Shown in pieces: positions 4,464 to 61,782 of a stretch of DNA of 64,000 nt. The notes under the pieces are model-generated. The model worked only from the letters and a program-made list of their open reading frames with translations. It was not told the DNA's origin and did not search any database. Every line of letters starts with the position of its first letter. Position 1 is the stretch's first letter. The translations under genes were made by a program, and so were the position numbers. The DNA comes from an uncultured Actinomycetes bacterium (lineage in GTDB: Bacteria; Actinomycetota; Thermoleophilia; Gaiellales; JAICJC01), in NCBI GenBank assembly GCA_963708725.1, contig CAVPTL010000008.1:733697-797696 (forward strand), in the 5' to 3' direction.

Positions 4464-4496
4464 GTGAATAAATGGTGCCTGGCACCATTTATTCAC
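4464..4496. repeat. Palindromic intergenic repeat copy 1 (33 nt, perfect, centre T); putative bidirectional terminator
   Basis: Sequence gtgaataaatggtgccTggcaccatttattcac, between the MFS stop (4447) and the ftsH start. Confidence 0.85.
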
Positions 4497-4522
4497 CCGG
4501 TGGTTTGCCCGTCACGGAGCCG

Positions 4523-6505
4523 ATGAACCCGGGCCACTACACTTCGGCGATGGCGGATTCCAATCCTCGTGCCGCCCGGAGCTCGGGCCCCGATCCAAAG
4601 CCGCCGTCGCGCTGGCGAGTCGAAGGAGCATCCAAGGCCGCCGGTGGCGGCGGGCGCCGGTGGTTGCCGTTCGGCATCCTGATGGCCGTGCTGCTCGGCG
4701 TCAACTGGATCATCTCGTCGCACTTCAACGCCCCGCCGCCGCGACCGACCGTCTCCTACACCTTCTTCATCGAGCAGGTCAAGAAGGCGAACGTCTCTGA
4801 GATCAACACCACCGGGCTCACGGTGCAGGGCTCGTTCATCGGCTCCACGGCGCTTCCCAAGGGCACTTCAGACAGCCCGTCGACCCGCTTCCAGACCGAG
4901 ATCCCGACGTTTGTCGATAACGATGCGCTGAACGCGCTGCTCGACAAGGAGCACGTGATCATCAACGCCCACAGCGCCGACTCGGCGCCGCCGTTCTGGG
5001 AGCAGCTGCTGCTCGGATTTGGCCCCACGATCCTGCTTGTCGGTCTGTTCATCCTGATCTTCCGGCGGGCGAGTGCGGGGTCCGCCCTTGGTTCCTTTGG
5101 CCGATCGCGGGCCAAGCGCTACCAGGAAGGCGAGAAGCGGGTCACGTTTGCCGATGTCGCCGGTATCGACGAGGCCGAGGAAGAGCTGGCCGAGGTCGTC
5201 GACTTTCTCAAGACGCCGCAGAAGTACACCGCCCTGGGTGCCCGCGTCCCCAAGGGCGTGCTGCTCTCCGGGCCGCCGGGGACGGGCAAGACGCTGCTCG
5301 CCCGCGCGGTCGCCGGCGAGGCGGGCGTTCCGTTCTTCTCGATCTCGGCGTCGGAGTTCATCGAGGCGATCGTGGGTGTCGGTGCCAGCCGCGTGCGAGA
5401 CCTGTTCGTGCAGGCCAAGGAGACGGCGCCCGCCATCGTCTTCATCGACGAGCTCGATGCGATCGGACGCTCGCGCGGTGGGGGCGCATCGATTGGCGGC
5501 CACGATGAGCGCGAGCAGACGCTCAACCAGATCCTTACCGAGATGGACGGGTTTACGGGCACCGAGGGCGTGATCGTGATCGCTTCGACCAACCGGCCCG
5601 AGGTGCTCGACTCGGCGCTGCTGCGGCCCGGCCGCTTCGATCGCCGCGTCTCGGTCAGCCCGCCCGATCAGCTCGGCCGCGAGCAGATCCTTCAAGTGCA
5701 TACGCGCGGCGTTCCGGTCTCGCCAGACGTCGACCTCGGCGCCCTGGCGTCGAGCACCCCGGGGATGGTCGGAGCCGACCTTCAAAACCTCGTCAACGAG
5801 GCCGCGCTGACCGCTGCACGCCGGGGTCACAAGGCCGTCCAGACTGCTGATTTCACCGACTCGCTCGAGCGGATCGTGCTGGGTGCCGAACGCCGGATCA
5901 TGATCTCGCCCGAGGATCGCGAGCGCACCGCCTATCACGAGTCCGGCCACGCGCTGGTTGGAATGGTGATCCCCGGTGGCGATCCGGTGCGCAAGATCTC
6001 GATCATCCCGCGTGGGCGCGCGCTGGGCGTCACCTTCCAGAGCCCCGATGCCGATCGCTACGGATACACCGACGAGTTTCTTCGCGGCCGGTTAGCCGGC
6101 ATGCTCGGCGGCCGCGCCGCCGAAGAGGTCATCTACGGCGATCTGACGACGGGCGCCGAGTCAGACCTCGAGCAGGCGACCCGGATCGCTCGCCAGATGG
6201 TGGGCCGCTGGGGCATGTCCGAGCAGATCGGACTGGTGTCGGTGCTTCCTGGGCCCAACGATGAGCCGACGCTCTTCCCCGGTGGCAACGACGGTGTCTC
6301 TGAGCGGACTCGACAGATGGTCGACGACGAGGCCCGCCGCATCATCGAGGAGGCACACCGCACCGCGCTCGAAACCCTGGCCGCCCATCGCGACCAGCTC
6401 GAGGCCCTCGCGCGCGCTCTGCTCGAGCGCGAGACACTCGACGAGCTCGACGCCTACCGGATCGCCGGTATCCAGCGTGACCCGGTGCCCGAGCCGAGCC
6501 TTTGA
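4523..6505 (+). CDS. ftsH: ATP-dependent zinc metalloprotease FtsH
   Basis: Walker A GPPGTGKT, the AAA second region of homology, and the zinc motif HESGHAL. The start is placed at the in-frame ATG after ACGGAG, downstream of the palindrome; the ORF-track start at 4472 lies inside the palindrome. Confidence 0.93.
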
Positions 6506-6506
6506 G

Positions 6507-7277
6507 ATGGCGCGCACAGCGATCCCCGGGTTGGTGGTCGCGACGGACACGGCGGTCCCCGGCGGCCTGATCCGCGGGCAGGTGTCGGGAGGGCCGGAGG
6601 AGCTGCGCTTGATCCGGTTCGAGGGATCCCCGGCGGGAACGGCTCCGGTGGTTCTGGCCCGGGCGGCTCCTGACGCGGATGGCGGGTTCGAGTTGACGCT
6701 GCCCGAGAACTCGGCGCCGACGTTCAAGAGCACTCGCTGCTCGATTGCCTACGGGGTACGAGCGGGCTCCAAGCGCCGCACGCGCACCGATCCGGTGGTG
6801 CCGGTGGTGGTGGTGTCACCGCTCGAGCACGTGTCTCTGACCGAAAGCGGCCCGCTCCACGACCGCATGATCGCGCGGTTTGACGCGCGCCACTTTCACC
6901 TCGAGCTGTCGCATGCCGACGTTCAGGGTGGTGGCCGCATCAGCGGGCGGGTGCATCTCGACCGCGGCGATCCGCCGCCCGTGGTCACCGTGACCTCGCG
7001 GTGCGAAGAGGTCTGGAGGATCGATCGGATGTCGCTCAACATGAAGCGGCCGCCACTCTGGAACTACGAGGGGCTGTGGCAGGAGCGGCGGGAACTCGAA
7101 TGGCCGCTTGGGCAGCGCTGGTTGGGATTCGACTTCGCGCTGCCCGCGCACCTCCCACCGGCCGTCGAAGCCAGCTCGATCGCTTGGCGCTATGAGGTGG
7201 AGGTGTCGCGACCGACTCGCTTCGCGATGCAGGAGCGCGCTGTCGCCACGCCAATCGGCTTTGAAGTCGTCCTGTGA
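6507..7277 (+). CDS. Hypothetical two-domain beta-rich protein, possibly arrestin/Spo0M-like
   Basis: In-frame ATG one nt after the ftsH stop (TGAgATG). Two similar halves are visible (G.I.G.V...LP...P..F/.Y.V patterns). The family assignment is pattern-based only. Confidence 0.5.
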   Translation: MARTAIPGLVVATDTAVPGGLIRGQVSGGPEELRLIRFEGSPAGTAPVVLARAAPDADGGFELTLPENSAPTFKSTRCSIAYGVRAGSKRRTRTDPVVPVVVVSPLEHVSLTESGPLHDRMIARFDARHFHLELSHADVQGGGRISGRVHLDRGDPPPVVTVTSRCEEVWRIDRMSLNMKRPPLWNYEGLWQERRELEWPLGQRWLGFDFALPAHLPPAVEASSIAWRYEVEVSRPTRFAMQERAVATPIGFEVVL

Positions 7278-7304
7278 ATAACGGTGCCTGGCACCGTTAT
7301 TCAC
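7274..7304. repeat. Palindromic intergenic repeat copy 2 (31 nt, perfect, centre T; dyad extends to 7271-7307)
   Basis: Sequence cctGTGAATAACGGTGCCTGGCACCGTTATTCACagg. The TGA at 7275-7277 ends the plus-strand gene and the TCA at 7301-7303 ends the minus-strand gene. Confidence 0.9.
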
Positions 7305-9172
7305 AGGTGGCGGTCGAACCAGTCGCGCATTCGCGCCACCGCGTCGATCTGATGGTCACGCTCGTCCCAGCCGTGGCCCTCGCGGGGATAGATCACGAGT
7401 TCGGTGTCCACGCCCTCCGCGGCCAGCGCGTTGTAGAACTCCTGGCCCTGCGCCAGCGGCACGCACAGGTCGAGCTCACCGTGCATCACCAGGGTGGGAG
7501 TCTTCACCCGGCGCACATGCACCACCGGTGAGCGGCCGAAGTACTCACCGTCGGCGGCATAGGGATCGGCTTGGAGAAACAGCTCATCGAAGCGCGCGAT
7601 GTTCGACGTGTTGTGGAACGAGAGCCAATCGGTGACCGCCGCGATCGCCACCGCCGCGCCGAACCGGTCGGTCTGGGTCACCGCCCACGCGGCCATGAAC
7701 CCGCCGTAGCTTCCACCCATGATGCCCACCCGAGCGCCGTCGACCAGTCCGCGTTCGGCAAGGGCGTCGACGCCGCTGAGGATGTCACCGAGGTCACGGC
7801 CGCCCATGTCACCCAGGTTTGCCTCGGTGAACTCGCGGCCGCGGCCGATGCTGCCGCGCGGGTTGGGCAGAAACAGTGCGTAGCCGGCGGCGGCTTGCCA
7901 CGAGCCGAAATGACGCGGGTGGGCGGATCCGTAGGCGGCGGTTGGGCCGCCGTGCACGAGCACGATCAGCGGTGGCGGCTCGGTAACCCCTTGCGGCGTG
8001 ATCAGAAAGCCTTCGAGTTCGAGTCCGTCGCTCGCCGTCCAGGTCACCGCTGCTCGCACCGGCAGCTCGATCGCAGAGGCTGCGTTCACACGCGAAAGTG
8101 CCGTCCACGCCGATCCTGGCTGGTCGAGAGTGAGGGAGCGAAGCTCGGGCGGATGCTCCCACGACGAATGCGTCGCGACCAGCGATCGGCCGTCGGGGGA
8201 GAGCACCGCCAGCGGGAAGTTGTGGCTACCGAGATCGGCCGCACCCTGCCACAGCAGCGACACCGAACCCGCGAGGTTCACGGTCGCAACGGCGAACTCG
8301 AGGTGATGCATGCCGGTGCACACCAGCGTCTCGGGATCAACCCACCGAACCTCCGCCGCGTCGAACCCGACGCTGATCGTTTGGATGTCGCCAGAGCCGG
8401 TGACCACGGTGATGTCGCCATACAGCACACCGCGATCCGACGCCAGGGATTCGACCATCGCGATCGCGCCGGATTCGGGCTCGAGGCTGATCGACGCCGC
8501 CTGTAGCCGAGGGGTGTGGACGGTTGTCGCCTCGTCGCCGACGATGCGCACCACCCGCGCGTCGTACCACCCGTTCTCCGAGGGATCGTGTGAGACCAGG
8601 GCGGCGATGTCGCTTCCGTGCCAGTCGAACTCCCAGATGTTGAGCCCCGCCAGGGGCAGCTGTGTGGTCGCGCCGGTCGTGACGTCGATCCTCCACAGGC
8701 GGCGCCAGTGGCTTGCCGGCCGCACGATCCGCGGATCCTCCTTGACCTCGCCAACGGGGGTTGCGGACTCGGCTCCGGCCTGGTCGGCACCCACATCGGC
8801 GGCGAGTGCCAGCATGGTGGTCCCGTCGCTCGACCAACGGAGGTCTTCGACAGACCCCGCCACATCTCCGACTCGGCGGATCGAGCCGTCGGGGTCGAGC
8901 AGGTGGATCGCGCCCACCTTGGCCTGCTCACGATCCGACACGAACGCCAGTGTGCGCCCATCGGGCGACCACACAGGCAGCCGGTCGCTGCGAGGCCCGT
9001 CAGACACCCGATCGGCCCCCGAGCCGTCGGCCGCGGCGACCCAGATGCGGGCGGATCGGCCGACCTCGGGCAGGGTGTATGCCTGTTCGACGGTGAACGC
9101 CACGCGCGTGCCGTCGGGCGAGACCGCGGGTTGGCAGGGGTGTTCGAGATCGAGTAACCGGTCGAAGCTCAT
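7301..9172 (-). CDS. S9 family serine peptidase (prolyl oligopeptidase / acylaminoacyl-peptidase-like, beta-propeller plus alpha/beta hydrolase)
   Basis: Start placed at MSFDRLLDLEHP (ATG 9172..9170), an ATGA overlap with the upstream MFS stop. PDG/WSPDG propeller repeats are present, with the nucleophile motif GGSYGG. The 139 codons upstream in the ORF track are Arg/Gly-rich and implausible. Confidence 0.85.
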   Translation of the reverse strand: MSFDRLLDLEHPCQPAVSPDGTRVAFTVEQAYTLPEVGRSARIWVAAADGSGADRVSDGPRSDRLPVWSPDGRTLAFVSDREQAKVGAIHLLDPDGSIRRVGDVAGSVEDLRWSSDGTTMLALAADVGADQAGAESATPVGEVKEDPRIVRPASHWRRLWRIDVTTGATTQLPLAGLNIWEFDWHGSDIAALVSHDPSENGWYDARVVRIVGDEATTVHTPRLQAASISLEPESGAIAMVESLASDRGVLYGDITVVTGSGDIQTISVGFDAAEVRWVDPETLVCTGMHHLEFAVATVNLAGSVSLLWQGAADLGSHNFPLAVLSPDGRSLVATHSSWEHPPELRSLTLDQPGSAWTALSRVNAASAIELPVRAAVTWTASDGLELEGFLITPQGVTEPPPLIVLVHGGPTAAYGSAHPRHFGSWQAAAGYALFLPNPRGSIGRGREFTEANLGDMGGRDLGDILSGVDALAERGLVDGARVGIMGGSYGGFMAAWAVTQTDRFGAAVAIAAVTDWLSFHNTSNIARFDELFLQADPYAADGEYFGRSPVVHVRRVKTPTLVMHGELDLCVPLAQGQEFYNALAAEGVDTELVIYPREGHGWDERDHQIDAVARMRDWFDRHL

Positions 9173-18413: not shown

Positions 18414-19580
18414 TGCGTCGCTCGGCTCTTGCCATTCTGGTACTCGTATTCGTGGAGGAGCTGACGTTGTTCGCGATCATCCCGATCGTGCCGTTGTACT
18501 CCTCTCAGCTCGGCCTCTCAAAGGTGCAGTCGGGTGCGGTGCTGTCGGCGGCGGCGTTCGCGGTCGTACTCAGCTCGATACCGGCGGGCATCCTTGCCGA
18601 TCGCGATTGGCGCGCGGCGCGTAACGATCGCCGCCGGTTGCCTGACGGTGGTCGCTTGCGTGCTCCAGGCGTATGCCGGTTCATTCGAGACGATCCTGAC
18701 CGCGCGGCTGTTGTTCGGGGTCAGCTCGGCGGTGGTGTGGTCGTCGGCGCTGTCGTGGCTGTCGGATGTGAGCACCGAGGACACCCGGGCGTCGGTGGTC
18801 GGTTTGACCGTGACGGCCGCGGGGGTGGGCAGCCTGGTCGGTCCGGCGTTCGCGGGTTACGTCGCCCAGCACTTCTCGATCGAGGCGGCGTTTCTGTCGA
18901 TCGCGGTCGCAACCGCGGTGATCACGGGGGCGCTGTTTTTTGTCGGCGAGGGTGTACCTCACGCCATCGAGACGACCTCGCTGCGTCAGGTTGCGGGGAT
19001 CGTGACCGGGAGCCCGCTGATCGTGGGGGCACTGCTGATGATGTTCGTCGCGGGTTTCGTGGACGGCATCGTCAATCTGCTGGCGCCTCTCGAGTTGGCG
19101 GCCGACGGTCTCTCGTCGGGTCCGGTCGGGCTGGTGTTCTCGATTGCCGCTGCGATCTTTATCGGTGTGAGTGGCGTCGTCTCGCGCGGCGGTTTGGCGG
19201 CGTCGCCGCGCGCGGCCGGGGCCGCGTGTCTGATCCAGGCGGTCACGATGGTGCCGGTGCTGTTCTCGCTCGCGACCGCGTCGGTGATCTTTGTGGTGCT
19301 CGCACGCGGGCCGACCACAGCCGTCGTGTACACGGTCGCGATGCCCGTCGCCGTCATGGCGTCACGGCGGCACGGCATCGGCACGGCCACGGTCGCCGGG
19401 GTGGTTGGGGCGACCTGGGGCTTTGCCAGTGCGATCGGGCCGCCGATCGCGGGACTGATCGCCGACTCGGCGAGCGACCAGGCCGCCTATGCACTGGGCG
19501 CCGTGATGCTCGTTGGCGCAGGTGTGTGGCTGCTGCGCGGGGCGGTGCAGCCGACTCCCGCACCGGAGCCCCTTGGGTGA
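18413..19580 (+). pseudogene. MFS transporter with a frame disruption near 18605
   Basis: TM1-2 (MRRSALAILVLVFVEELTLF...IPAGILADR) are in one frame. The remainder (IGARRVTIAAG... to PEPLG*) is in the +1 frame as ORF 18534..19580. Removing the g at about 18605 restores motif A, GILADRIGARR. Confidence 0.75.
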
Positions 19581-19607
19581 ATAACGGTGCCTGGCACCGT
19601 TATTCAC
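19577..19607. repeat. Palindromic intergenic repeat copy 3 (31 nt, perfect, centre T)
   Basis: Sequence gtgaataacggtgccTggcaccgttattcac. The TGA at 19578-19580 is the stop of the MFS gene. Confidence 0.9.
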
Positions 19608-20904: not shown

Positions 20905-21510
20905 GTGGTCGATCAGGTCCACGCCATCCTGCGGGAGCAGATCCTCAACGGAGAGTTGCCGCGTGGCTCGCGGCTGCCTCAGGAGACGATCGCCGCGGAG
21001 CTCGGCGTGTCACGCACGCCGTTGCGCGAGGCCTTGCGGCGGCTGGCGAGTGAGGGGCTGGTGACGCTTCAACCCAATCACGGCGCGACCGTGGCCGGCC
21101 TCGACTTCTCCGACCTGCATGACGCCTGGGTGGCGCGGCTGGCGATCGAGCCCTCGGCCGCGCGGCTGGCGGCTGAGCGCCGCGACCCGGACGAGCTCGA
21201 GCGGATGGCGGCGGCGATCGCATCCCAGCGGCGGGTGGGCGACGCGGCCTCGGGCCTCGACGCCAACCGCGAGTTTCACCTGGCGCTGGTCGCGGCCTCC
21301 GGAAACCGGCACTTCGATCACTTCGCCCACATGCTGTGGGTATCGCGAATCTCGGTCGCGATCTACACCGCCCAGGCCAGCGAATCGGCCGGCGTCGACG
21401 GCTGGGCGGACGAGCACGAAGCGATCCTGGCCGCGATCACGGCAGCCGACGGCGACCGCGCCGAACACCTCACCCGCGCCCACATCGAGCGCCACCCACC
21501 CCTCCGGTGA
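20905..21510 (+). CDS. GntR-family regulator (FadR/FCD-type C-terminal domain)
   Basis: The wHTH reads LPQETIAAELGVSRTPLREALRRLASEGLV. The start is moved to the in-frame GTG 20905 because the ORF-track start at 20833 coincides with the predicted -35 hexamer. Confidence 0.82.
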   Translation: MVDQVHAILREQILNGELPRGSRLPQETIAAELGVSRTPLREALRRLASEGLVTLQPNHGATVAGLDFSDLHDAWVARLAIEPSAARLAAERRDPDELERMAAAIASQRRVGDAASGLDANREFHLALVAASGNRHFDHFAHMLWVSRISVAIYTAQASESAGVDGWADEHEAILAAITAADGDRAEHLTRAHIERHPPLR

Positions 21511-21537
21511 ATAACGGTGCCAGGCACCGTTATTCAC
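21507..21537. repeat. Palindromic intergenic repeat copy 4 (31 nt, perfect, centre A; dyad extends to 21504-21540)
   Basis: Sequence ccgGTGAATAACGGTGCCAGGCACCGTTATTCACcgg. The TGA at 21508-21510 is the gntR stop. Confidence 0.9.
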
Positions 21538-21550: not shown

Positions 21551-23089
21551 CTAGATGGCGGTGTCCGGCGGGGCCGGCGTGAAGTCGAGGTTCTCGTCCA
21601 GTGGAGCGACGCCGCGATGTTCGGCGGCGTGCTGGGCGGCGTTCTTCACGTTGTCCGGTCGTGCGACCTTGACCACGACGAACCACACCAGTGCAATCAC
21701 GACCACCGCCAGCGCCCAGTAGAACGCGAGCCAGTTGTAGTTGGTTGTGTCGTGCGGAGCCGGCTTGAGTGCTCCGTAGAAGCCTTGCAGCGGAGTCAGC
21801 ACAGCCACCAGCACGATCAGGTACTGCCACCATTTGCCGCCGTGACGGGCGAGCAGTACCAGGCCACCGATGGCGAGCAGCAGGTACACGATCTCGATCG
21901 CGAACGAGCCCGCCGTCGCCGAAACGATGAAGGTCGAGAACTCCTTCGACCCGAAGATCGGCACGAACTTGTCCATCGTGCTGGTCGTCGACATGATCAG
22001 CAGGAACACACTGCCGACCACGATCACCAGGTTGCCCACCCATGGAGTGTTGTGCCGCGAGGTCTTGGCGAACACCTTGGGCAGCAGGCCGTCGCGGCCC
22101 AGCGCGAAGTAGCCGCGGCCGAGAGCCACGCACACCGCCAGTCCGAGTGCGGTCGCGTCGAGAATCACGACCAGGTCGATCAGGGTGCCCAGCCACGATC
22201 CCACGTACTGCTTGGCCATCGTGTCGAGCGCGGCCGGGTCGAGTGCCCACGCGCCCTTCTCGATCGCCGCTTTGCCGTAGCCGATCGTCATCGCGTAGGC
22301 CATGATCACGAAGAACACCGAGGAGGCTGCGATCGCCCCGAGCACGGCGCGGGGAATCGACTTGTACGGGTCGCTCGACTCCTCGCCGATCGATGCGGCG
22401 GCCTCGAATCCGACGAACAGCAAAATGCCGAGCAGGATGCCGCCGAGCACCCCGCCGCCGGTGACGCCGAACAGCGATGTCTGGCCGGGGTTGAACACCT
22501 GGAGCGTGTTACCGTCGGCGCCGCCCTGCGCGATGATCGCCACCGCGAGGATCAGCATCGGGATGAACGAGATCGCCGCGAACGCGAGCATCGCCCCGAT
22601 GGCCAGCCGCACGCCGAGGTAGTTGAGGATGAGCACGATCACCATCATGATCCCGCCGAGTACCCACCAGGCGGGCGCGTTTGACGCGTCGCCGATGTGG
22701 TTGACCCAGAAGCCGTTGAGCAGTACGCCGAGGCCGACGTAGATACCGCCGCCGCCGAGAAACAACGTGCCGACGAAGAAGATCCCGGCCGCGATGATGC
22801 CGACATAGGGATGCGTACCGTGGGTCAGGTACTCATAGACGGCGCCTGCGCCCGCGTACCGACGAGCGTGCAGCGACAGCGCGTATCCGATCGCGAGCAC
22901 ACCGAGGCCCGCGAGCAGCACCGCCAGGGCGGCGTTGAACCCCGCGCCTGTGGCGGGATTGGAGACTGCTCCGAGAACCAATGCGACCGAGAACATCGGC
23001 CCGATTGCAAGTGCCTGTGCGATCGCGTGGATCGTCGTCAGGTTGCGTTCACCCAGCTGGCCGCTGGGGGCGGGTGCGTCACTGGCCAT
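21551..23089 (-). CDS. APC-superfamily amino acid permease
   Basis: 512 aa with about 12 TM segments and typical APC composition. A GAAGGAG RBS precedes the ATG. Confidence 0.82.
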   Translation of the reverse strand: MASDAPAPSGQLGERNLTTIHAIAQALAIGPMFSVALVLGAVSNPATGAGFNAALAVLLAGLGVLAIGYALSLHARRYAGAGAVYEYLTHGTHPYVGIIAAGIFFVGTLFLGGGGIYVGLGVLLNGFWVNHIGDASNAPAWWVLGGIMMVIVLILNYLGVRLAIGAMLAFAAISFIPMLILAVAIIAQGGADGNTLQVFNPGQTSLFGVTGGGVLGGILLGILLFVGFEAAASIGEESSDPYKSIPRAVLGAIAASSVFFVIMAYAMTIGYGKAAIEKGAWALDPAALDTMAKQYVGSWLGTLIDLVVILDATALGLAVCVALGRGYFALGRDGLLPKVFAKTSRHNTPWVGNLVIVVGSVFLLIMSTTSTMDKFVPIFGSKEFSTFIVSATAGSFAIEIVYLLLAIGGLVLLARHGGKWWQYLIVLVAVLTPLQGFYGALKPAPHDTTNYNWLAFYWALAVVVIALVWFVVVKVARPDNVKNAAQHAAEHRGVAPLDENLDFTPAPPDTAI

Positions 23090-23193: not shown

Positions 23194-23628
23194 CTAGCAG
23201 CTCACGGGGCCGATAACTTGCGGCGCCGACATCGCGCTGTACGAGGACTCCGACGAGAATGTGGTGGCTACCTCGATATACAGGTGGCCGCTGGATATAG
23301 GGGAGTGCCAGTACCCGTTGGACGCCGGCAGCGCCACGACGCCCATGCTCGTGTACGGCCCTCCCGACGACGTTGCGTAGAACGCTGCGACGGAGTCGCC
23401 CCCCGAACCACCGGGGACAGTGAAGCTCACTTGAACAGTTGTTACACCGGCACCGAAGCAGCCGGCATAGCCGGCAGTGACGCTGGTTGGCGTCAAAAGC
23501 GGCAGGCCGCTGGTGAACGCGGTCGTGTCCGATGTGGTCGACGTCCAGGTGGCAAGCGCCGCACCCGTCGGCGCAGCGAGGATGGTCGCGACGGCGAGTA
23601 TCACCCAGAGCGTCCGCGACCGGGTCAC
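23194..23628 (-). CDS. Small secreted protein with a SipW-cognate-like signal peptide (accessory subunit candidate)
   Basis: GTG 23628 overlaps the signal-peptidase stop (GTGA). The N-terminus VTRSRTLWVILAVATILAAPTGAALATWTSTTS resembles the G-x-x-A-x-aromatic-T/S junction of the upstream paralogs. Confidence 0.55.
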   Translation of the reverse strand: MTRSRTLWVILAVATILAAPTGAALATWTSTTSDTTAFTSGLPLLTPTSVTAGYAGCFGAGVTTVQVSFTVPGGSGGDSVAAFYATSSGGPYTSMGVVALPASNGYWHSPISSGHLYIEVATTFSSESSYSAMSAPQVIGPVSC

Positions 23629-24143
23629 GTTTCCCACCAGACGTCGCTCTCTCGCCGGCGCCATTCACGCAGCGCGAGTTTGCCGACCGCAACCGCTGCG
23701 ACCAGCAGCCCCGCACCGGCCAGCGTCACCGGCGAGCGCACCGCCACGATCACGTATCCCGCCCAGGGTAGGTCCTGCTGGGCCACCCACACAGTGCGGT
23801 CGGCGAGCCGTGCCCGCCAGGGGTCGACCACTGGGTTGGCATCCCCGCGGGTGGTGATCACCGGTCGCGCTCCGGCCATCTGGATTTTCACCACGCGGTG
23901 CATGACGAGATGGTGGTCGAGCACGGGGATGTGGTAGACGACGACCTGGCCAACTCGCAGTGCGGAGATCGGCTCGGGTGTCACGAACGCGGCCGAGCCG
24001 GTGGGATAGGTCGGCGTCATGCTGCCCGAGAGCACCGGCAGCATCCGCACCCGCCCGCTGAGTTGGGCGGCGACGAGCGCCAGGGCAGCCACGGCGATGA
24101 TGCATGCCAACCCGGTCGTGAGCCGGCCCGCAAGCGTCCTCAT
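23625..24143 (-). CDS. Signal peptidase I, SipW/archaeal-eukaryal (Ser-His) type
   Basis: N-terminal TM, then LSGSMTPTYPTGS (catalytic Ser box), MHRVV (His box), TRGDANPVVD, and a C-terminal TM. Confidence 0.8.
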   Translation of the reverse strand: MRTLAGRLTTGLACIIAVAALALVAAQLSGRVRMLPVLSGSMTPTYPTGSAAFVTPEPISALRVGQVVVYHIPVLDHHLVMHRVVKIQMAGARPVITTRGDANPVVDPWRARLADRTVWVAQQDLPWAGYVIVAVRSPVTLAGAGLLVAAVAVGKLALREWRRRESDVWWET

Positions 24144-24165
24144 GATGTCTGACTCTTTAGCCTGA

Positions 24166-24762
24166 TCAGTGGCCGGTGAAGACGAGCCGGATGCCCGAGG
24201 TCTTGGCCTCGAACGAGTTGTCGGCGGTCGATGGCAGCGTGAAGGTGACCACCAGGTGGTCGGTATTGCCGCCGTCGACCGCGGTCAGGTTGTCGAGCGA
24301 GAGGTTCGACCCGATCACCGGTCGCGCGGCCAGGACGCTGTCGGTGGTTCCCGGGCAGGTGTAGGTGAAGTTCGGCGACGTCCCGCTCTCTGTCCATGAC
24401 GTCGAGCAGCGGTCGATCGTGAACTGCAGGCCGTCGGTGGTATCGGTGTCGAGAATCGAGCTGGGGCTCGCGGTCGTGGTCAGCGTGATCGAGGAGAGGT
24501 CGACCGAGCCGGAGTTGACCAGGTCGACGCTGCGCTGCACCGAGTCGCCCGGCGTCTCGTCGGTCGCGTCGACGTCGAGCCGGTTGCTCTGGCCACCGGT
24601 GGCGCCGACGTCCAGCGTGAGCGTCCCGGTCGAGAACGTGTGGGTCACCGCATTGGTGGAGCTGGTGAACCCGGCGTACACGCCGATACCGGCGATCAGG
24701 AGCGCGATCACGATCACCACCGGCAGGATGAAGAATCGTTTACGTCTGTCGTGAAAGCGCAT
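24166..24762 (-). CDS. TasA/camelysin-like secreted protein, paralog 1
   Basis: The signal anchor ends in GVYAGFTSST. Conserved blocks: GDS.QRSVDLVNSGSVDLSSITLTTTASPSSILDTDTTDGLQFTIDRCS...TYTC. Confidence 0.72.
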   Translation of the reverse strand: MRFHDRRKRFFILPVVIVIALLIAGIGVYAGFTSSTNAVTHTFSTGTLTLDVGATGGQSNRLDVDATDETPGDSVQRSVDLVNSGSVDLSSITLTTTASPSSILDTDTTDGLQFTIDRCSTSWTESGTSPNFTYTCPGTTDSVLAARPVIGSNLSLDNLTAVDGGNTDHLVVTFTLPSTADNSFEAKTSGIRLVFTGH

Positions 24763-24840
24763 CAGCGGTGCTCCGTTGCCGGTTGAAGGTCGTTCCAGGT
24801 CGCCCCAGTAGTCGGACGGGCGTGGCCCCGGTTGAGCGCG

Positions 24841-25554
24841 TCACTTGTCGGTGGCCGCGCGCTGGGTGCCGGTGAAGGCGTAGGTGATCGTCGAGCTGAG
24901 ACCCTGGGTGGAGTTCGATGTGCCCGACGGCAGGGTCAGCGTGACCCGCAGGTGGTTGCTCGCGCCGGCTGTGAGCGTGAGGTTCGAAAGCGTCAGGTTC
25001 GACCCGATCACCGCGCGCGATGCCAGCACACTGGTGGTGGTGCCGCTGCAGGTGTAGGTGAAGGCCGGCGAGGTACCCGCCTCGGTCCAAGCCACCGAGC
25101 ACTTGTCGATCACCATCTGGAGGCCGTTGGTGGTGTCGGTGTCGAGCAGCGAGCTGGGGCTGGCGGTGGTGGTCAGCGTGATCGAGGCGAGGTCGATCGC
25201 GCCGGAGTTGTTGAGATCGACACTGCGCTGCATGGTGTCGCCTGCGACGATGCCGCTGGCGTTGATGTTCAGGCGGTTGGTCGACGCCCCGGTGGCTCCC
25301 AGGGCCACGGTGATCGTGCCCGAGCCGATCGTGTTCGACTGCGAGGCGGTGCTGGTGTAGGTCGCGTACACCCCGGCTCCACCGAGCGAGGCCGCGAGTG
25401 CGATGCCCCCTAGCGCGACTGGCCTGATGGCGACCCCTGCTCCCTGCCTACCGGAGAAGAACAGTGGATAGGTCGCTGTGAACCGGAACAGTCGCAGCGA
25501 GACGATCATCGCGGCAAACACGATCACGGTCAGATCGGTGGCGAGGGGGTGCAT
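24841..25554 (-). CDS. TasA/camelysin-like secreted protein, paralog 2 (start uncertain)
   Basis: Same conserved blocks as paralog 1, and very close to paralog 3. The ORF has a longer hydrophobic N-terminus, so the true start may be internal. Confidence 0.7.
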   Translation of the reverse strand: MHPLATDLTVIVFAAMIVSLRLFRFTATYPLFFSGRQGAGVAIRPVALGGIALAASLGGAGVYATYTSTASQSNTIGSGTITVALGATGASTNRLNINASGIVAGDTMQRSVDLNNSGAIDLASITLTTTASPSSLLDTDTTNGLQMVIDKCSVAWTEAGTSPAFTYTCSGTTTSVLASRAVIGSNLTLSNLTLTAGASNHLRVTLTLPSGTSNSTQGLSSTITYAFTGTQRAATDK

Positions 25555-25583
25555 CAGCTCGATCCCGCGGCCCGGCCTCGGGC

Positions 25584-26204
25584 CTACTCGTTGGTGGCGG
25601 CGCGCTGGCTGCCGATGAAGGCGCAGGAGATCGTCGAGGACAGCCCCTGGAGCGTGTTCGGGGCGGTCGCCGGCAGCGCCAGCGTCACCCGCAGGTGGTT
25701 GCTGGCGCCGGCAGTCACGGTCATGTTGGAGAGCGCGATGGCCGAGCCGATCACGGCCTGGGACGCCAGCACGCTCGAGCTGGAGCCGCTGCAGGTGTAG
25801 GTGTACGCCGGCGATGTGCCGGCTTCAGTCCACGGCACCGAGCATTTGTCGATCGTGATCTGAAGGCCGTTGGTGGCGTCGGTGTCGAGCAACGAGCTGG
25901 GGCTGGCCGTCGTGGTCAGGGTGATCGAGCCGAGGTCGGTCGAGCCGGTGTTGTTGACATCGACGCTGCGCTGCATCGTGTCGCCGGCGACGATCCCGCT
26001 GGCGTTCACGTTCAGGCGGTTGGTCGAGGCGCCAGTCGCTCCCAGGGCGATCGTGACAGTGCCCGACGACACCGTGATCGATTGCGTAGCGCTGGCGGTG
26101 AAGGTCGCATACACGCCGACTCCGCCGGCGAGGGCGACCAGCAGCACCACGCCGACGACGGCGGCAAGAAAGCGGGGACGGCGGATTCGGGCTGAAGTCC
26201 TCAT
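25584..26204 (-). CDS. TasA/camelysin-like secreted protein, paralog 3
   Basis: MRTSARIRRPRFLAAVVGVVLLVALAGGVGVYATFTASAT..., with the same conserved blocks and Cys pair. Confidence 0.72.
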   Translation of the reverse strand: MRTSARIRRPRFLAAVVGVVLLVALAGGVGVYATFTASATQSITVSSGTVTIALGATGASTNRLNVNASGIVAGDTMQRSVDVNNTGSTDLGSITLTTTASPSSLLDTDATNGLQITIDKCSVPWTEAGTSPAYTYTCSGSSSSVLASQAVIGSAIALSNMTVTAGASNHLRVTLALPATAPNTLQGLSSTISCAFIGSQRAATNE

Positions 26205-26242
26205 CGCCCCGGTAGTCGGACACCCTCAGCCCGTCTTGAGAG

Positions 26243-26839: not shown

Positions 26840-26892
26840 GCCCGGGAAATCGGCGTGAATCCTTTCGAGTTAAGACCGCGCGGAGGGCGACC

Positions 26893-36203: not shown

Positions 36204-36275
36204 GGCTGGTCCGTTGGGTCTGCCGCTCCGCTCACCACTCGATCCTTGCCACAGACCCAACGGCCTGCGCCTCAG
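36200..36275. repeat. B-type hairpin element B1 (nested inverted repeats around a core shared with 61669-61697)
   Basis: ctgaggc (36200-36206) pairs with gcctcag (36269-36275). ccgttgggtctg (36211-36222) pairs with cagacccaacgg (36252-36263). The core gctccgctcaccactcgatccttgccaca lies at 36225-36253. Confidence 0.7.
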
Positions 36276-36289
36276 GCGCCGGTCGCATT

Positions 36290-36321
36290 TGAATAAATGG
36301 TGCCAGGCACCATTTATTCAC
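36290..36321. repeat. Palindromic intergenic repeat copy 5 (16-nt arms, centre A, first base degenerate)
   Basis: Sequence tgaataaatggtgccAggcaccatttattcac, between convergent gene ends (36203 and 36351). Confidence 0.85.
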
Positions 36322-43730: not shown

Positions 43731-44432
43731 GTGCTCTCAGACCTGCAGTGGGCGCACATGATGACGGTGCCGTTCGAGAACCTGACGATTCATCTCGGCG
43801 GGCGAAACGTGCTCGACCCGAAGCGGAACTACGAGAAGATCGTGGTCGAGCATCGGGGAGGCTGGTGCTTCGAGCTCAATGGGACGTTTGCCTGGCTGCT
43901 GGCCGAGCTCGGCTTCGACGTCACGGTGCTGAGCGGCGGTGTGCATATGGGCACGGAGTTCTCAAACGAGCTCGACCACATGGTGCTGCGGGTCGACCTC
44001 GGCGAGCCGTGGCTGGTGGACGTCGGCTTCGGTGAGAACTTCACCACGCCGCTTCGGCTGGTAACCGGCATCGACCAGCCGCGCGACCGGCGCGTCTACC
44101 GGCTCGAGCCGGATGGTGAGGCGCTGATCCTCAGCCACGACGGTGAGCCGGACATCCGCTTCTCGCTCACTGCTCGGACGCTCGAACAGTTCCAGCCGAA
44201 CTCCGACTTCCTCCAGACACACGAGACGCCGTTCACCCGCCAGCCCAGCTGCTCGATGGCCACGCCGGACGGTCGCATAACGCTCTCGGGCATGCGGGTG
44301 ATCGAGACACGCGACGGCGAGCGCACCGAGTGGGTGCTCGACGACGATGCTGCGCGGCTGGCGTTTCTGCGCGATCGCTTTGGAGTGGTGGTCGCTGGGC
44401 CGTTCATCGCGCCAGTTGTGACTCATTTGTAA
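43731..44432 (+). CDS. Arylamine N-acetyltransferase (NAT); true start probably upstream
   Basis: Motifs VPFENL and GGWCFELN (catalytic Cys). The NAT-like N-terminal sequence (DVSRYLERIGY) continues in frame upstream of GTG 43731, where no ATG or GTG is available. Confidence 0.78.
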   Translation: MLSDLQWAHMMTVPFENLTIHLGGRNVLDPKRNYEKIVVEHRGGWCFELNGTFAWLLAELGFDVTVLSGGVHMGTEFSNELDHMVLRVDLGEPWLVDVGFGENFTTPLRLVTGIDQPRDRRVYRLEPDGEALILSHDGEPDIRFSLTARTLEQFQPNSDFLQTHETPFTRQPSCSMATPDGRITLSGMRVIETRDGERTEWVLDDDAARLAFLRDRFGVVVAGPFIAPVVTHL

Positions 44433-44489
44433 CTGATCGTTGACGTAAATATCGGCCTGTGGTTCGAGTCCGATGTTAGGTTATCGATT

Positions 44490-45434
44490 ATGACTTCGAA
44501 TCCACTAACCCGCACGCTCCTGTCAGCCGCAGCTCTATCAATTTCCGCCATCCTCTTCACTGGCACGCACGCATTCGCGGACGCGTCCCCGGCGACCTCC
44601 TCCCAGGTTCAACAGGACGTGTCCGCTGCCGTCTCTTCCCAAGGCGTCAGCCCGGCAGCCGCCGTTACCACCAGCGACGGTTCGTTTTCCTCGCACGAAA
44701 ATGGAAATGTCGTTGATATCCCGCGAGACTCTTCGGATCCGGCGACCATCGCAAACGGCGGCGTGTCGATCGCGGTTGACCTGCCTTCTGACGATCCGGC
44801 CGGGACCCGTGTCGGATCGACGATCGTCTATGAGGGCGAAGCCGGTTCGAGTGCCGTCGCGGTTCAAGCCATTCCCGACGGCCTCCGAGCCTTCGTCACG
44901 ATCGACGACTCCTCCGCGGCCCATAGCTATCCGTTCCCACTGTCAGGCGACGTCGCAAGAGTCGACGAGGACACCGACGGAGGTTTGATTCTTTACGACG
45001 CCGCGGGTGCCGAGATTGGCAGCGTCGGCGTTCCGTGGGCGACCGATGCGAACGGCGCGTCTGTCCCGACGCATTTCAACGTCGTCGGAACCACTGTCAC
45101 GCAAGTCGTCGAGTTTGAAACGGACACCGCTTTCCCGGTCGTCGCCGATCCGGCGGTCCATCTCCACTGGACGACGTTCACGGTTGAGCTCTACCCGAAG
45201 GATCAGAGAGTTTTGGCGGCCGGCGCGATAGCTGTCGGAGTGCCCGCCATCGTGGCAGCCGTATGTTCGCCACTTCCAGTCACTGAACCCGTGTGTGCGG
45301 GGGCGGGTAGAGGGCTGGCCGCTACGCTCGCCACGTACGTCGCTCTGAGTTTCCATCCTCATTGTCACCTCAATCTGAGCTTCTACTACGTCCCCTTTCA
45401 TTTCGATCGGTGGTGGACGAGCCAGTGCTCGTGA
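44490..45434 (+). CDS. Secreted hypothetical protein with a hydrophobic, Cys/His/Trp-rich C-terminus
   Basis: Signal-peptide-like N-terminus (LLSAAALSISAILFTGTHAFA). It lies in a locally low-G+C stretch, and I recognise no family. Confidence 0.55.
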   Translation: MTSNPLTRTLLSAAALSISAILFTGTHAFADASPATSSQVQQDVSAAVSSQGVSPAAAVTTSDGSFSSHENGNVVDIPRDSSDPATIANGGVSIAVDLPSDDPAGTRVGSTIVYEGEAGSSAVAVQAIPDGLRAFVTIDDSSAAHSYPFPLSGDVARVDEDTDGGLILYDAAGAEIGSVGVPWATDANGASVPTHFNVVGTTVTQVVEFETDTAFPVVADPAVHLHWTTFTVELYPKDQRVLAAGAIAVGVPAIVAAVCSPLPVTEPVCAGAGRGLAATLATYVALSFHPHCHLNLSFYYVPFHFDRWWTSQCS

Positions 45435-45676
45435 GTCGGCGTTCCCGCATCTGGCAATGGGTGTGTGACGTGCACACCGGTGTCTCGCCTTGGAAGTGGT
45501 TGGTGTCTCCGATCGAAGCTGCCGCGTTAGTGCTAGGAGTGACATTTGTCATTGGCAGATCGCTTCCCTGGTCGCTGTTTGTTCTCGTTGTGGGGATCAC
45601 CGGGATCCCGCCGGATGTGTACGTGCGGGGATCGAAGCGCCTCAGGGGCCAGCGTGCCACTCGCGATCGGGATTGA
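45431..45676 (+). CDS. Small membrane protein, translationally coupled (GTGA) to the preceding gene
   Basis: GTG 45431 overlaps the stop at 45432-45434. Two hydrophobic segments are present (VSPIEAAALVLGVTFVIG, WSLFVLVVGITGI). Confidence 0.4.
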   Translation: MSRRSRIWQWVCDVHTGVSPWKWLVSPIEAAALVLGVTFVIGRSLPWSLFVLVVGITGIPPDVYVRGSKRLRGQRATRDRD

Positions 45677-45796
45677 AGGACTGCCTCGTCAGGTGCAGCA
45701 CTGATTCTTGACGCGGGGCGCCCTTGCGGCTCATTACGGGGGGAGTGAGAGCGCCTCTGTACCGATGGCGCACGTCACGACGCCGCGCCGACTCCC

Positions 45797-46591
45797 TCAG
45801 GCAGGCTGAGCGGAGCTGATCTCGGGGATCAGATCGGCCACCGAGTCGATCACACGCGACGGTCGGTAGGGGAACCGATCGATCATGTCCGACGAGGTGA
45901 TCCCCGACAGCACCAGAATCGTCTGGAGGCCGGCTTCCAACCCCGCCACCATATCGGTGTCCATGCGATCGCCGATCATGGCGGTCGACTCCGAGTGTGC
46001 ATCGATCGCGCGCAGCGCCTCGCGCATCATCAGCGGGTTTGGCTTGCCGATGAAGTACGGCTCGACGCCGGTCGCCTTCGAGATCAGCGCAGCCACCGAT
46101 CCGGTGGCCGGCAGCACCCCATCGGGGCTCGGGCCGGTCACGTCGGGGTTGGCCGCGATAAAACGCGCTCCCCCGTTGATCAGCCGGATCGCGTGGGTGA
46201 TGCGCTCAAAGCTGTAGAGCCGGGTCTCACCGAGCACCACATAGTCCGGATCACGCTCGGCCAGCACGTACCCAGCCTCGTGCAGTGCGGTGGTCAGTCC
46301 CGCCTCGCCGATGACGTAGGCGCTGCCGCCCGGCCGCTGCTGATCGAGGAAGCGCGCCGTTGCCAGTGCTGCCGTCCAGATCGACCCGGGCGGTACCTGC
46401 AGACCACTCGCCGCGAGCCGCACTGCGAGATCGCGCGGCGTGTACACCGAGTTGTTGGTGAGCAGCAAGAACCCAAAGCCCGCATCCTGGAGCGCCCGGA
46501 TGAAATCGGCCGCGCCGGGAATTGCCCGCTCCTCGTGCACGAGCACGCCGTCCATATCGATCAGGTAGTTGGTGACTTCGCGTTGAGTCAT
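45797..46591 (-). CDS. HAD-superfamily hydrolase, subfamily IIA (NagD-like phosphatase)
   Basis: Motifs YLIDMDGVL (motif I DxD), LLTNNS and GDRMDTD (motif IV). Confidence 0.82.
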   Translation of the reverse strand: MTQREVTNYLIDMDGVLVHEERAIPGAADFIRALQDAGFGFLLLTNNSVYTPRDLAVRLAASGLQVPPGSIWTAALATARFLDQQRPGGSAYVIGEAGLTTALHEAGYVLAERDPDYVVLGETRLYSFERITHAIRLINGGARFIAANPDVTGPSPDGVLPATGSVAALISKATGVEPYFIGKPNPLMMREALRAIDAHSESTAMIGDRMDTDMVAGLEAGLQTILVLSGITSSDMIDRFPYRPSRVIDSVADLIPEISSAQPA

Positions 46592-46621
46592 GCGGGACCG
46601 GATGATAACCGCCGATCCCGC

Positions 46622-47611
46622 TCAGCCGGGCGGTGGGGCGCGATTCGGCTCTGACTCCGACTTGGGGAAGTGCGGCGGCCACGGTGCATCCTGGAGGCCC
46701 GATGCCTCGTCGGCCCGCGCCAGCTCCAGCAGGCTCTCGATCGAGCCCGCGTGGGCGTCGATGCCGGCCGACGGATCGCCTCGGCGAGCAACCAGTTGCG
46801 GCACGGTATCGAGTCGCAGTTCTTCGGGTTCGACATCGGGAACCTCGTCCCACTCAAGCGGGCACGACACCCGCGCGTCGGCCACCGGACGCACCGAGTA
46901 GGCCGACGCCACCGTCCGGTCGCGAGCGTTTTGGTTGTAGTCGAGGAACACCCCATGGCGCTCCTTCTTCCACCATTTGCTGGTGGCCAGGCCCTCGCCG
47001 CGGCGCTCGATCTCGCGCGCGATCGCAAGCGCCGCCCGGCGCACCTCGACAAACCCGTGCTCGGGGATGATCCGCACATTGATGTGGATGCCGCGCGATC
47101 CGGAGGTCTTCGGAAACCCGGTGAGGCCGTGTTCCTCCAGCAACTCCTTGACCATCATCGCCACCGTACGCACGTCGGCGAAGGGGATTCCCGGCGTCGG
47201 GTCGAGGTCGATGCGAAGCTCGTCGGGATGGTCGAGATCGGCCCGCCGCACCGGCCAGGGGTTGAAGTCGATCACGCCCAGGTTCACCGCCCAGGCGAGA
47301 TGGGCCGCGTCGTTTGCGACCAGTTCCTCGGCGCTGCGGCCGCTGGGGAAGTGCACGACGGCAGTCTGCAGCCAGTCGGGAGCCCCCTTTGGCACCCGTT
47401 TTTGGAAGAAGAACTTGCCCGCCGCCCCATCCACGAACCGCTTCAGCGTGGTGGGCCGCTCCTGGAGGTGGTTCACGACCTGATCGGCCATCGTCACGTA
47501 GTACTGGACGACCTCGCGCTTGGTGAATCCGGCCTCCGGAAAGTAGACCTTCTGTGGATTCGAAACGCGGATCATGCGGCCCGCCGCCTCGAGTTCGATC
47601 GCTTCAGCCAT
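46622..47611 (-). CDS. Stand-alone NHEJ polymerase/primase (LigD polymerase-domain-like)
   Basis: Motifs RVSNPQKVYFPEAGFTKREVVQYY, DELRIDLDP and KTSGSRGIHI are characteristic of the LigD PolDom. Confidence 0.8.
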   Translation of the reverse strand: MAEAIELEAAGRMIRVSNPQKVYFPEAGFTKREVVQYYVTMADQVVNHLQERPTTLKRFVDGAAGKFFFQKRVPKGAPDWLQTAVVHFPSGRSAEELVANDAAHLAWAVNLGVIDFNPWPVRRADLDHPDELRIDLDPTPGIPFADVRTVAMMVKELLEEHGLTGFPKTSGSRGIHINVRIIPEHGFVEVRRAALAIAREIERRGEGLATSKWWKKERHGVFLDYNQNARDRTVASAYSVRPVADARVSCPLEWDEVPDVEPEELRLDTVPQLVARRGDPSAGIDAHAGSIESLLELARADEASGLQDAPWPPHFPKSESEPNRAPPPG

Positions 47612-56649: not shown

Positions 56650-56680
56650 GTGAATACCAGTGCCAGGCACCGTTATTCAC
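56650..56680. repeat. Palindromic intergenic repeat copy 6 (31 nt, 2 arm mismatches, centre A)
   Basis: Sequence gtgaataccagtgccAggcaccgttattcac, 9 nt after structured RNA copy 1. Confidence 0.8.
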
Positions 56681-56725
56681 AGGTGTGAGCAGGTGGACAG
56701 GCGGGTAGGGAGAAGTCATGCCCCG

Positions 56726-58014: not shown

Positions 58015-58034
58015 GCGGGCCAGTCTACCGGGGG

Positions 58035-61368: not shown

Positions 61369-61414
61369 GCGCCGCGCACTCTATCGAAGTCCGCAAACTG
61401 CGCGAAATTCGTGG

Positions 61415-61443
61415 TTGCAGACCGGGCCTACATCCCTTAACTT
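61415..61443 (+). promoter_or_regulatory. Candidate promoter TTGCAG-N17-TAACTT in front of structured RNA copy 2
   Basis: TTGCAG lies at 61415-61420 and TAACTT at 61438-61443, homologous in position to 56498-56526. Confidence 0.5.
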
Positions 61444-61450
61444 GACTCCT

Positions 61451-61558
61451 GCGCCGCTGAGGGCAGCCAAGTAGGTTGAAACCGGGCGGAGGGATCGTAG
61501 GGGCGACTCGAAAATCCTTTCGGCCGGCGGACGAAAGGCAAGCCGGAGCGGCGAATCC
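61451..61558 (+). ncRNA. Unclassified conserved structured RNA, copy 2 (strand not settled)
   Basis: Closing helix 61452-61458 pairs with 61547-61553. A second helix pairs 61462-61464 with 61542-61544. A hairpin spans 61516-61538 with the loop GCCGGCGGA. Confidence 0.5.
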
Positions 61559-61565
61559 TTTTAAT

Positions 61566-61746
61566 ACGGGGGGCGCTTGGGTGGGGTTCTGTTGCGGCTG
61601 GTTCGCGCCGGCTGTGGCTGCGTCCCACGCGACGTGCGGTGCTCAACGTGGCCGCTGGCCACGCCTGCGCTCCGCTCGCCGCTCGATCCTTGCCACAACC
61701 ACCGCGCCCTGCGCCTCACGACGAACCCCACCCAAGCGCCCCCCGT
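61566..61746. repeat. B-type hairpin element B2: 181 nt bounded by a perfect 24-bp inverted repeat
   Basis: acggggggcgcttgggtggggttc (61566-61589) pairs with gaaccccacccaagcgccccccgt (61723-61746). An internal hairpin gtggcc-gct-ggccac is present. The core at 61669-61697 is shared with 36225-36253. Confidence 0.75.
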
Positions 61747-61749
61747 GTG

Positions 61750-61782
61750 GTGAATAAATGGTGCCAGGCACCTTTTATTCAT
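61750..61782. repeat. Palindromic intergenic repeat copy 7 (33 nt, 2 arm mismatches, centre A)
   Basis: Sequence gtgaataaatggtgccAggcaccttttattcat. Confidence 0.8.

Follow-up and report, generated by a model that had tools for sequence, protein, structure and literature searches.

The repetitive extragenic palindromic (REP) sequences of Proteobacteria, with their bacterial interspersed mosaic elements (BIMEs), are many-copy extragenic palindromes of 20-40 nt whose stems are kept by complementary mutations, and they come as two subtypes in regularly spaced clusters. Their partner is a REP-associated tyrosine transposase (RAYT) with HUH and tyrosine motifs, encoded at a conserved chromosomal position, as in E. 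coli (TnpA-REP/YafM, PDB 4ER8), Pseudomonas and Stenotrophomonas, and the defining arrangement of the system is a RAYT gene with two inverted REPs at its flanks (PMC2817692). In REPINs, two inverted REPs make up one long hairpin, and the short-repeat population is tied to a RAYT that is single-copy and vertically inherited (PMC3116915, PMC5581495). Almost all REP-RAYT systems characterised so far come from Proteobacteria, with no actinobacterial example in PMC2817692, PMC3733652 or PMC5581495.

Here we analyse a family of palindromes present in seven copies in a 64,000-nucleotide stretch of DNA (hereafter the window; contig CAVPTL010000008.1, positions 733,697 to 797,696 of the forward strand) from an uncultured actinomycete. 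These palindromes are very probably REP elements, that is, short non-autonomous partners of a presumably single-copy RAYT (HUH/Y1, IS200/IS605 superfamily) encoded elsewhere in the genome; they would have come to lie at gene ends by tolerated insertion, and their hairpin is probably a 3'-end element. Among described systems the REP/BIME elements and RAYTs of Proteobacteria are the closest match, and most of their defining features are found here, in an uncultured Gaiellales-related actinobacterial clade rather than in Proteobacteria. This is a known kind of system, REP-RAYT, in an undescribed host group. The seven copies, which we call REPs below, and their immediate neighbours are as follows.

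4464..4496: palindrome copy 1, 33-nt subtype with AT/AT at the covarying positions, perfect dyad, centre T; 16 nt past the stop of an MFS transporter gene (3092-4447, + strand) and upstream of ftsH (about 4505-6505, + strand).
7274..7304: palindrome copy 2, 31-nt subtype, perfect, centre T, between convergent genes; the TGAs of its arms are the stops of an arrestin-like open reading frame (ORF; 6261-7277, + strand) and of an S9 peptidase gene (7301-9172, - strand).
19577..19607: palindrome copy 3, 31-nt subtype, perfect, centre T; its TGA is the stop of an MFS gene (18594-19580, + strand), and an acyl-CoA dehydrogenase gene starts 25 nt downstream.
21507..21537: palindrome copy 4, 31-nt subtype, perfect, centre A; its TGA is the stop of a GntR/FCD regulator gene (20905-21510, + strand), and a convergent amino-acid permease gene (21551-22996, - strand) ends 13 nt off.
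36290..36321: palindrome copy 5, 33-nt subtype (AT/AT) with the outer G replaced by T, centre A; between a convergent glutamine-synthetase-like gene (34872-36203, + strand) and a PhzF-like gene (36351-37208, - strand).
56650..56680: palindrome copy 6, a degenerate 31-nt subtype (two mismatches in the left arm), centre A; two co-directional - strand genes, for a Cys/Met pyridoxal-phosphate enzyme and an ABC transporter, are each about 200 nt away.
61750..61782: palindrome copy 7, 33-nt subtype (AT/TT) with two mismatches, centre A; directly after a 185-nt long-hairpin repeat (61564-61748) and followed by GGGGCGCTTTT.

A sequence-only reading of the window had proposed these seven copies, and its coordinates and sequences agree with ours in 7/7 cases, as do the two length classes of 31 and 33 nt, the centre bases (T, T, T, A, A, A, A in order) and the arm mismatches (none in copies 1-4, the first G changed to T in copy 5, two in each of copies 6 and 7). 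Its remark that the AT-rich arms are conspicuous is apt for a window with a G+C content of 63-70%, and the recurrent peptide that it put down to the repeat, VNNGA(W/R)HRYS, is indeed the sole stop-free frame of the arms and is present in the ORF translations. The pattern GTGAATAA-N13-17-TTATTCAC matched the window four times, compared with 0.00 times in 100 shuffles, and the core GGTGCCWGGCACC occurs there six times exactly and once with one mismatch. An nhmmer search with a profile made from 35 distinct palindrome variants returned exactly the seven sites (E 1e-12 to 7e-8) and no further window copy above noise.

At 31 or 33 nt and with arms of 14-15 bp, the palindromes fall in the range of REP stem-loops (about 20-40 nt). 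The bare palindrome RNA has a minimum free energy of -21 kcal/mol, and when the window copies were folded with their flanks, 6/7 gave hairpins of -25 to -36 kcal/mol (z -4.3 to -8.7); the degenerate copy 6 has lost its hairpin (z -0.6). An Rfam search of the window gave no match at gathering thresholds, and a tRNA scan of the window found none. We also note that the palindrome centre (window 4478-4482, for example) reads CCWGG, a Dcm/EcoRII-type recognition sequence in which the W coincides with the centre base; the arms, GGTGCC/GGCACC, are GGYRCC, and the Dcm/EcoRII-type centre may be a coincidence.

The family is high-copy, extragenic and common to a clade of soil Actinomycetota. The exact 31-mer is present in at least 103 8-kb loci of four uncultured actinomycete metagenome-assembled genomes (MAGs) from Danish soils; the loci (given below by L numbers) were selected for holding it, and the counts from the four MAGs are lower bounds. 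A fuzzy search of the window and the 103 MAG loci gave 168 copies, and one MAG, CAVSNF, has 84 copies in 58 8-kb loci among the matches listed. From these locus counts and the density in the window, 7 copies per 64 kb, we take the family to reach the roughly 100 or more copies per genome that are usual for REPs. A degenerate pattern retrieved 86 more contigs from soil and rhizosphere metagenomes and no palindrome copies from viral contigs, and a search of a literature collection for the motif gave no match. The window is distinct from the four MAGs, with which it is syntenic at 80-86% nucleotide identity; contigs in five ENA assemblies match it at 98.5-99.6% identity, and the nearest named relatives of its FtsH are from Gaiellales and Thermoleophilia MAGs (about 70-74% identity). 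The dispersed family that had been suspected from seven copies is thus not confined to the window: it is genome-wide, with hundreds of copies, in at least five related uncultured soil Actinomycetota.

A RAYT gene, which the sequence-only reading had thought might lie elsewhere in the genome, was found and is flanked by these palindromes. An E. coli RAYT sequence used as a tblastn query gave the first match, which was verified independently with Pfam, NCBIfam and the PDB. It is an ORF of 210 amino acids (309-941) between two palindrome copies on a 2.3-kb soil contig (L129), and it scores 95.7 bits on NCBIfam NF047646, 'REP-associated tyrosine transposase' (cutoff 80), and 4.9e-10 on Pfam Y1_Tnp; in its alignment with TnpArep (PDB 4ER8; 3.5e-4) the HUH (HMH/HYH) and Tyr115 positions correspond. 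A homologue of 230 amino acids lies at 3509-4201 in a sister MAG locus (L061), with exact 31-nt copies upstream at 3346 and 3406 and at its stop codon (4194). Further homologues are present in L201-L203; the ENA samples from which these derive contain the window's species as well. One of the homologues, P0122 (L201; ENA contig ERZ25039457:contig_16455) is 73% identical to the L061 RAYT and has 31-nt copies on its flanks, and the two loci have the gene order leuC-leuD-RAYT-DUF8230 in common. The P0122 contig has a G+C content of 0.66 and is 82% identical to L061, which is the window's own divergence from that MAG, and cluster mates of the contig occur in two further samples with the window's species. 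Judged by these signatures, P0122 is very likely the window genome's own RAYT.

In a second lineage, named CC/GG for its arm variant, the gene order M20 peptidase-RAYT-metH recurs in four Gaiellales-type sub-lineages, always with flanking copies. Residues H60, H62 and Y119 are invariant across the RAYT lineages, and the proteins have the Y1/HUH fold, the HUH motif and the catalytic tyrosine in a YIxxNP context; their NF047646 scores are 95.7, 87.5, 79.7 and 67.1 bits (cutoff 80). At 11/11 loci with both flanks (L061, L201-L203, L129, L163 and L196-L200, from four RAYT lineages), the upstream copy has A and the downstream copy T at its centre on the RAYT coding strand, which is the inverted orientation. 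Where the REP is asymmetric, as in L198, the RAYT-flanking copies are exact reverse complements of each other. Every lineage examined has a RAYT gene with intact HUH and catalytic tyrosine motifs and with two inverted copies at its flanks.

Among other candidates, the ORFs between closely spaced copies in L027, L084, L062, L035, L007 and L044 were inspected by eye and none is RAYT-like; that in L062 looks like an acetyltransferase. We also note that all RAYTs of the clade (L061, L201-L203, L129, L198 and L199) carry a C-terminal, Cro/HipB-like helix-turn-helix (HTH) at residues about 195-229, with the consensus TQAEIAAAFGVSQATVSRR; this sets them apart from E. coli TnpA-REP, whose solved structure is without it. 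Many RAYT homologues from soil metagenomes also have HTH Pfam matches.

The arms of the palindrome vary in concert. Across the 168 copies the invariant parts are TGAATAA...TTATTCA and the core GGTGCC-W-GGCACC. At the variable arm positions the 31-nt type has C/G, and the 33-nt type has TT/AA (26 copies), AA/TT (11) or AT/AT (2); of the 45 33-nt copies from the window and the MAG loci, 39 have perfectly complementary arms and 6 do not. Metagenome lineages add CC/GG (66 copies), CA/TG and AC/GT. The variable positions thus covary such that the dyad is kept, as is typical of REPs, and because the arms vary together it is a hairpin that appears to be selected rather than a pair of half-sites each read on its own. 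The dominant variant is not the same in every lineage, a sign that elements are copied or homogenised within genomes.

This covariation bears on the idea that the palindromes are double-stranded operators for a dimeric DNA-binding protein, either the HTH of the RAYT or a nucleoid-associated protein, with a role in chromosome organisation or regulation. The near-perfect dyad, the HTH that is conserved in the RAYTs of all lineages and the outer half-sites TGAATA...TATTCA, invariant across lineages, would all suit an operator. Recognition of independent half-sites, however, does not predict arms that change together through at least six complementary combinations; moreover, divergent (promoter) regions are poor in copies and 3' ends are rich in them, and in the L198 lineage arms with a 4-nt internal mismatch still retain the outline of a hairpin. 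We consider an operator role improbable. A resemblance to sigma-54 promoters (TGGCAC-N5-TTCA) was dismissed on inspection, as the GC of the -12 element is missing; Actinobacteria are not known to have RpoN.

The palindromes also cluster in a BIME-like manner, in that 31-nt and 33-nt units are found side by side in doublets (n=25). Their linker measures 13-16 nt in 22/25 and has the weak consensus CACCnACGCnCTGG. The centre bases of the two units agree in 20/24 informative cases (p = 0.0015; one further doublet has a G centre), and this concordance places the units in direct orientation, in contrast to the alternating arrangement of BIMEs. With REPINs the family shares a short-repeat population tied to a RAYT, long persistence at orthologous sites and short-spacer doublets. 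A REPIN, however, consists of two inverted REPs, whereas here the doublet centres are concordant, each unit is already a complete palindrome, and most copies (114/168) are singletons. The window has singletons only, although its sites at 36290 and 61750 correspond to doublets in sister genomes (33+31 in MAG locus L047 for copy 5; 31+33 in L058 and L066 for copy 7).

The distribution of the copies relative to genes was assessed on gene calls from a third-codon-position G+C (GC3) heuristic. All seven window copies lie outside coding sequence, as had been noted earlier, on both the GC3 calls and Pfam matches of the neighbouring genes: three in convergent spacers, three in co-directional ones and one (61750) between divergently called genes, directly after a long non-coding hairpin. 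The TGA of the repeat is the stop of four window genes (6261-7277(+), 7301-9172(-), 18594-19580(+) and 20905-21510(+)). Over the window and the selected MAG loci, 165/168 copies are outside called genes and three inside, a placement typical of REPs, and the enrichment at intergenic 3' ends that the sequence-only reading had anticipated is pronounced: copies occupy 72/161 convergent intergenic regions (45%), 42/505 co-directional ones (8%) and 10/158 divergent ones (6%; chi-square p about 1e-30). As copy-free convergent spacers have a median length of only 5 nt, most convergent spacers with any room hold a copy. Among 249 gene 3' ends that face a copy, 82 (one third) have their stop inside the repeat, 56 at TGA (repeat positions 2-4) and 26 at TAA (positions 6-8), and 54 more stop no more than 20 nt away. 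No gene start overlaps a copy, and in co-directional spacers the copy lies at median distances of 13 nt from the upstream stop and 90 nt from the next start. T and A are equally frequent at the centre. The suggestion that the centre base marks orientation stands in part: it holds at the RAYT loci (upstream A, downstream T) and within doublets, where the two bases agree, and fails for the direction of neighbouring genes, to which the base is unrelated. GTAG REPs have likewise been reported to supply stop codons (PMC3733652), and relative to known REPs a distinctive trait here is that the outer arms which carry the TGA and TAA are AT-rich in a genome of 67% GC.

Such a distribution is also what one would expect if the palindromes were primarily bidirectional intrinsic (Rho-independent) terminators, with a core hairpin CGGUGC-CWG-GCACCG followed by UUAUUCAC and a copy number that reflects the scarcity of canonical terminators. 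The strong enrichment at convergent gene ends and near stop codons and the asymmetric co-directional distances (13 nt past a stop, 90 nt before a start) are in line with this, as is a layout of A-tract, GC-stem and U-rich segment (AAUAA-stem-UUAUU) that is identical on both strands and that, with the position between convergent genes, recalls known bidirectional terminators. Canonical terminator-like sites in the first 20 kb are not enriched (4 compared with 6.0 expected), and mycobacterial RNA polymerase has been reported to use suboptimal U-tracts with NusG (PMC3993855). By description, the palindromes also resemble TRIT of Mycobacterium (RNIE paper, PMC3152330), a conserved family of palindromic bidirectional hairpins with more than 100 copies in a high-GC actinobacterium and a narrow position overlapping the stop codon (about -8); TRIT, however, is reported to be restricted to Mycobacterium, and PMC3152330 mentions no associated transposase.

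Several features nevertheless fit a terminator poorly. An intrinsic terminator has a GC-rich hairpin followed by a U-rich tract of about 7-9 nt, whereas the tail UUAUUCAC, short and interrupted, has four U in eight, and in a scan that requires at least five T in eight no copy is called. Folded alone, the core gives a weak hairpin (-8.0 kcal/mol); in the full hairpin the U-rich tail is part of the stem, and the bases that come next are GC-rich flank. Near-identity at hundreds of sites and across species is not required for termination, and neither the flanking of the RAYT nor the 31+33 doublets would be explained. In M. tuberculosis, TRIT and other predicted terminator classes overlapped 2-4% of Term-seq 3' ends (bioRxiv 10.1101/2022.06.01.494293). 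We regard termination as a possible identity of the palindromes, though one that we would not favour; a terminator or stabiliser role is plausible as a secondary function of REP elements. We also note a canonical-looking intrinsic terminator at window 2964-2989 (CGGGCCTGAGGGTTCG then AGTTTTTTTG), over the stop of the gene ending at 2972, from which it follows that the genome has some ordinary terminators besides the REPs.

If the palindromes are REPs moved by a Y1 enzyme, target-site duplications are not expected, and none of 2-8 bp were found beyond the shuffled expectation. The flanks show only a preference for G(-1)/C(+1) and slightly raised pairing at offset 2. Insertion into pre-existing hairpins was discarded as a general rule, as the palindrome scarcely extends into the flanks; copy 7 does look like such a case. 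A short, abundant, intergenic element with terminal inverted symmetry could also be a classical miniature inverted-repeat transposable element (MITE) moved by a cut-and-paste DDE transposase, or a paired DNA-uptake sequence. The lack of target-site duplications beyond chance, the structure of the element as a single hairpin without internal sequence and the identity of the associated gene as a Y1/HUH RAYT instead of a DDE enzyme speak against a MITE, and the orientation-free motif against uptake sequences, which leaves both extremely improbable.

Orthologous sites retain the palindrome while their flanks become unalignable, and its subtype can differ between species: the 33-AT type of copy 1 in the window corresponds to the 31-nt type in sister MAGs (L011 and L043), and 31 in L073 corresponds to 33-TT in L062. 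Because orthologous subtypes differ and each lineage has its own dominant variant, re-copying fits better than point mutation. We also note that REPs seem to sit at synteny breakpoints; L043, for instance, has 3.7 kb extra at window position 4498.

A number of results weigh against the identification as REP elements. No clean pair of a filled and an empty site that would reveal an insertion target was found among the orthologous sites, most of which are filled in both genomes; the window sites 44432 and 46622, which do not have the copy present in a MAG, border a replaced 2.2-kb segment at which only one junction is comparable, and at 46622 the TCA of the gene itself aligns with the TCA of the REP. 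Within the window's species there is no polymorphism at copies 3, 4 and 5 in 4-5 strains, and the copies are fixed in five strains (copy 3 was found in 5/5 ENA strains). The unpaired GT(A/G)G (or CGTC) head of known REPs is not seen at the palindromes, which instead form a perfect dyad with mutually paired ends, GTGA...TCAC; being symmetric, the element is without a single tagged end. The RAYT gene is absent from the window, to whose genome it is linked by co-occurrence in three samples and by matching GC and divergence, not by a shared contig, and the window-lineage RAYT scores 67.1 bits (E 1.4e-18), below the 80-bit cutoff of NF047646. Finally, the GC3 heuristic behind the position statistics is crude, and selection of the MAG loci by the exact 31-mer inflates both the subtype ratios and the occupancy.

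By analogy with E. coli TnpA-REP and the IS608 paradigm, the RAYT would recognise the hairpin when it is extruded in single-stranded DNA, and would cleave and rejoin it. Such cutting and rejoining may copy or homogenise the elements, and the sequence would then be conserved across sites and species while the flanks diverge. As the positions of the copies suggest, they would persist at gene 3' ends because insertions are tolerated there; TGAATAA in the arm provides stops in two of three frames on both strands, and an insertion at or just inside a gene end could therefore truncate the gene cleanly. Once transcribed, a copy is predicted to form a hairpin of -21 to -34 kcal/mol and would probably be a 3'-end element in either direction. 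How the hairpin might act there, as an exonuclease barrier and/or as a weak hairpin-UUAUU terminator, is the least certain step of this scheme.

A bolder proposal is that the REP, with its perfect dyad, its TGA and TAA on both strands and its stable hairpin, is an orientation-free 'stop-and-fold' module and the main gene-end punctuation of a genome poor in canonical terminators, where it would both stop translation and form transcript 3' ends in either direction; a domesticated RAYT, having acquired an HTH, would curate its population. We think this unlikely; were it true, close to half of all convergent gene pairs in these abundant soil bacteria would need a transposase-maintained repeat to define their gene ends.

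As REP elements with their RAYT, the palindromes make a clean REP-RAYT pair available from a soil lineage that is uncultured, abundant and related to Gaiellales, with the unusual traits of a highly symmetric REP, of stop codons supplied to a third of the facing gene 3' ends and of a RAYT with an extra HTH. Practical consequences of the motif are spurious ORF extensions (VNNGAWHRYS); it is also a marker of gene ends and of breakpoints in synteny, and one could use it to recognise the lineage in soil metagenomes. The question of whether REPs work as terminators when canonical ones are few also has a tractable case here.

A second repeat family accompanies some of the REPs. It is an imperfect long hairpin of about 130-185 nt with the motif CTCGATCCTTGCCAC and compensatory changes in 7 predicted pairs, found in full at window 61564-61748 and in truncated form at 36200-36285, where it precedes copy 5, and also in L002, L047, L058, L066, L071, L074 and L090. 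The start of the repeat coincides with or lies close to a stop codon, and in every case a REP comes next within about 5-40 nt; L071, L090 and L081 have REPs on either side of it. In the window's species, one strain (L105) retains more of the copy at 36200 than do the other strains. A permissive Rfam search of 61400-61900 gave only weak, miRNA-precursor-like matches of the sort that any long hairpin produces. A MITE-like element and a small RNA gene are both possible identities of the long-hairpin repeat. At window 61725-61800, AAGCGCCCC and GGGGCGCTTTTGTG enclose copy 7 and pair as a canonical-looking terminator hairpin with a U-tract and with a loop that contains the REP. Since this GC-rich segment pairs with 61566-61586 too, where the long hairpin has its base, alternative structures are possible.

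The 2.2-kb segment at window 44432-46622, which is lower in G+C (0.63), stands in place of a different, two-gene segment of MAG CAVSFZ (L032 1385-3428) that has REPs at both of its ends; at the two junctions in the window there is none. The window segment contains an ORF without a Pfam match (44490-45434) and a HAD hydrolase gene, and near 44450-44500 there are strings that resemble tRNA T-arms (GGTTCGAGTCC and CTTCGAATCC), in which ARAGORN finds no tRNA. The segment may be a remnant of an integrated element. At window 23600-27000 (L204-L208 13500-17200), a region that the GC3 gene caller handled poorly, four to five small - strand genes with Pfam Peptidase_M73 matches (camelysin/TasA-like) lie downstream of an amino-acid permease gene.

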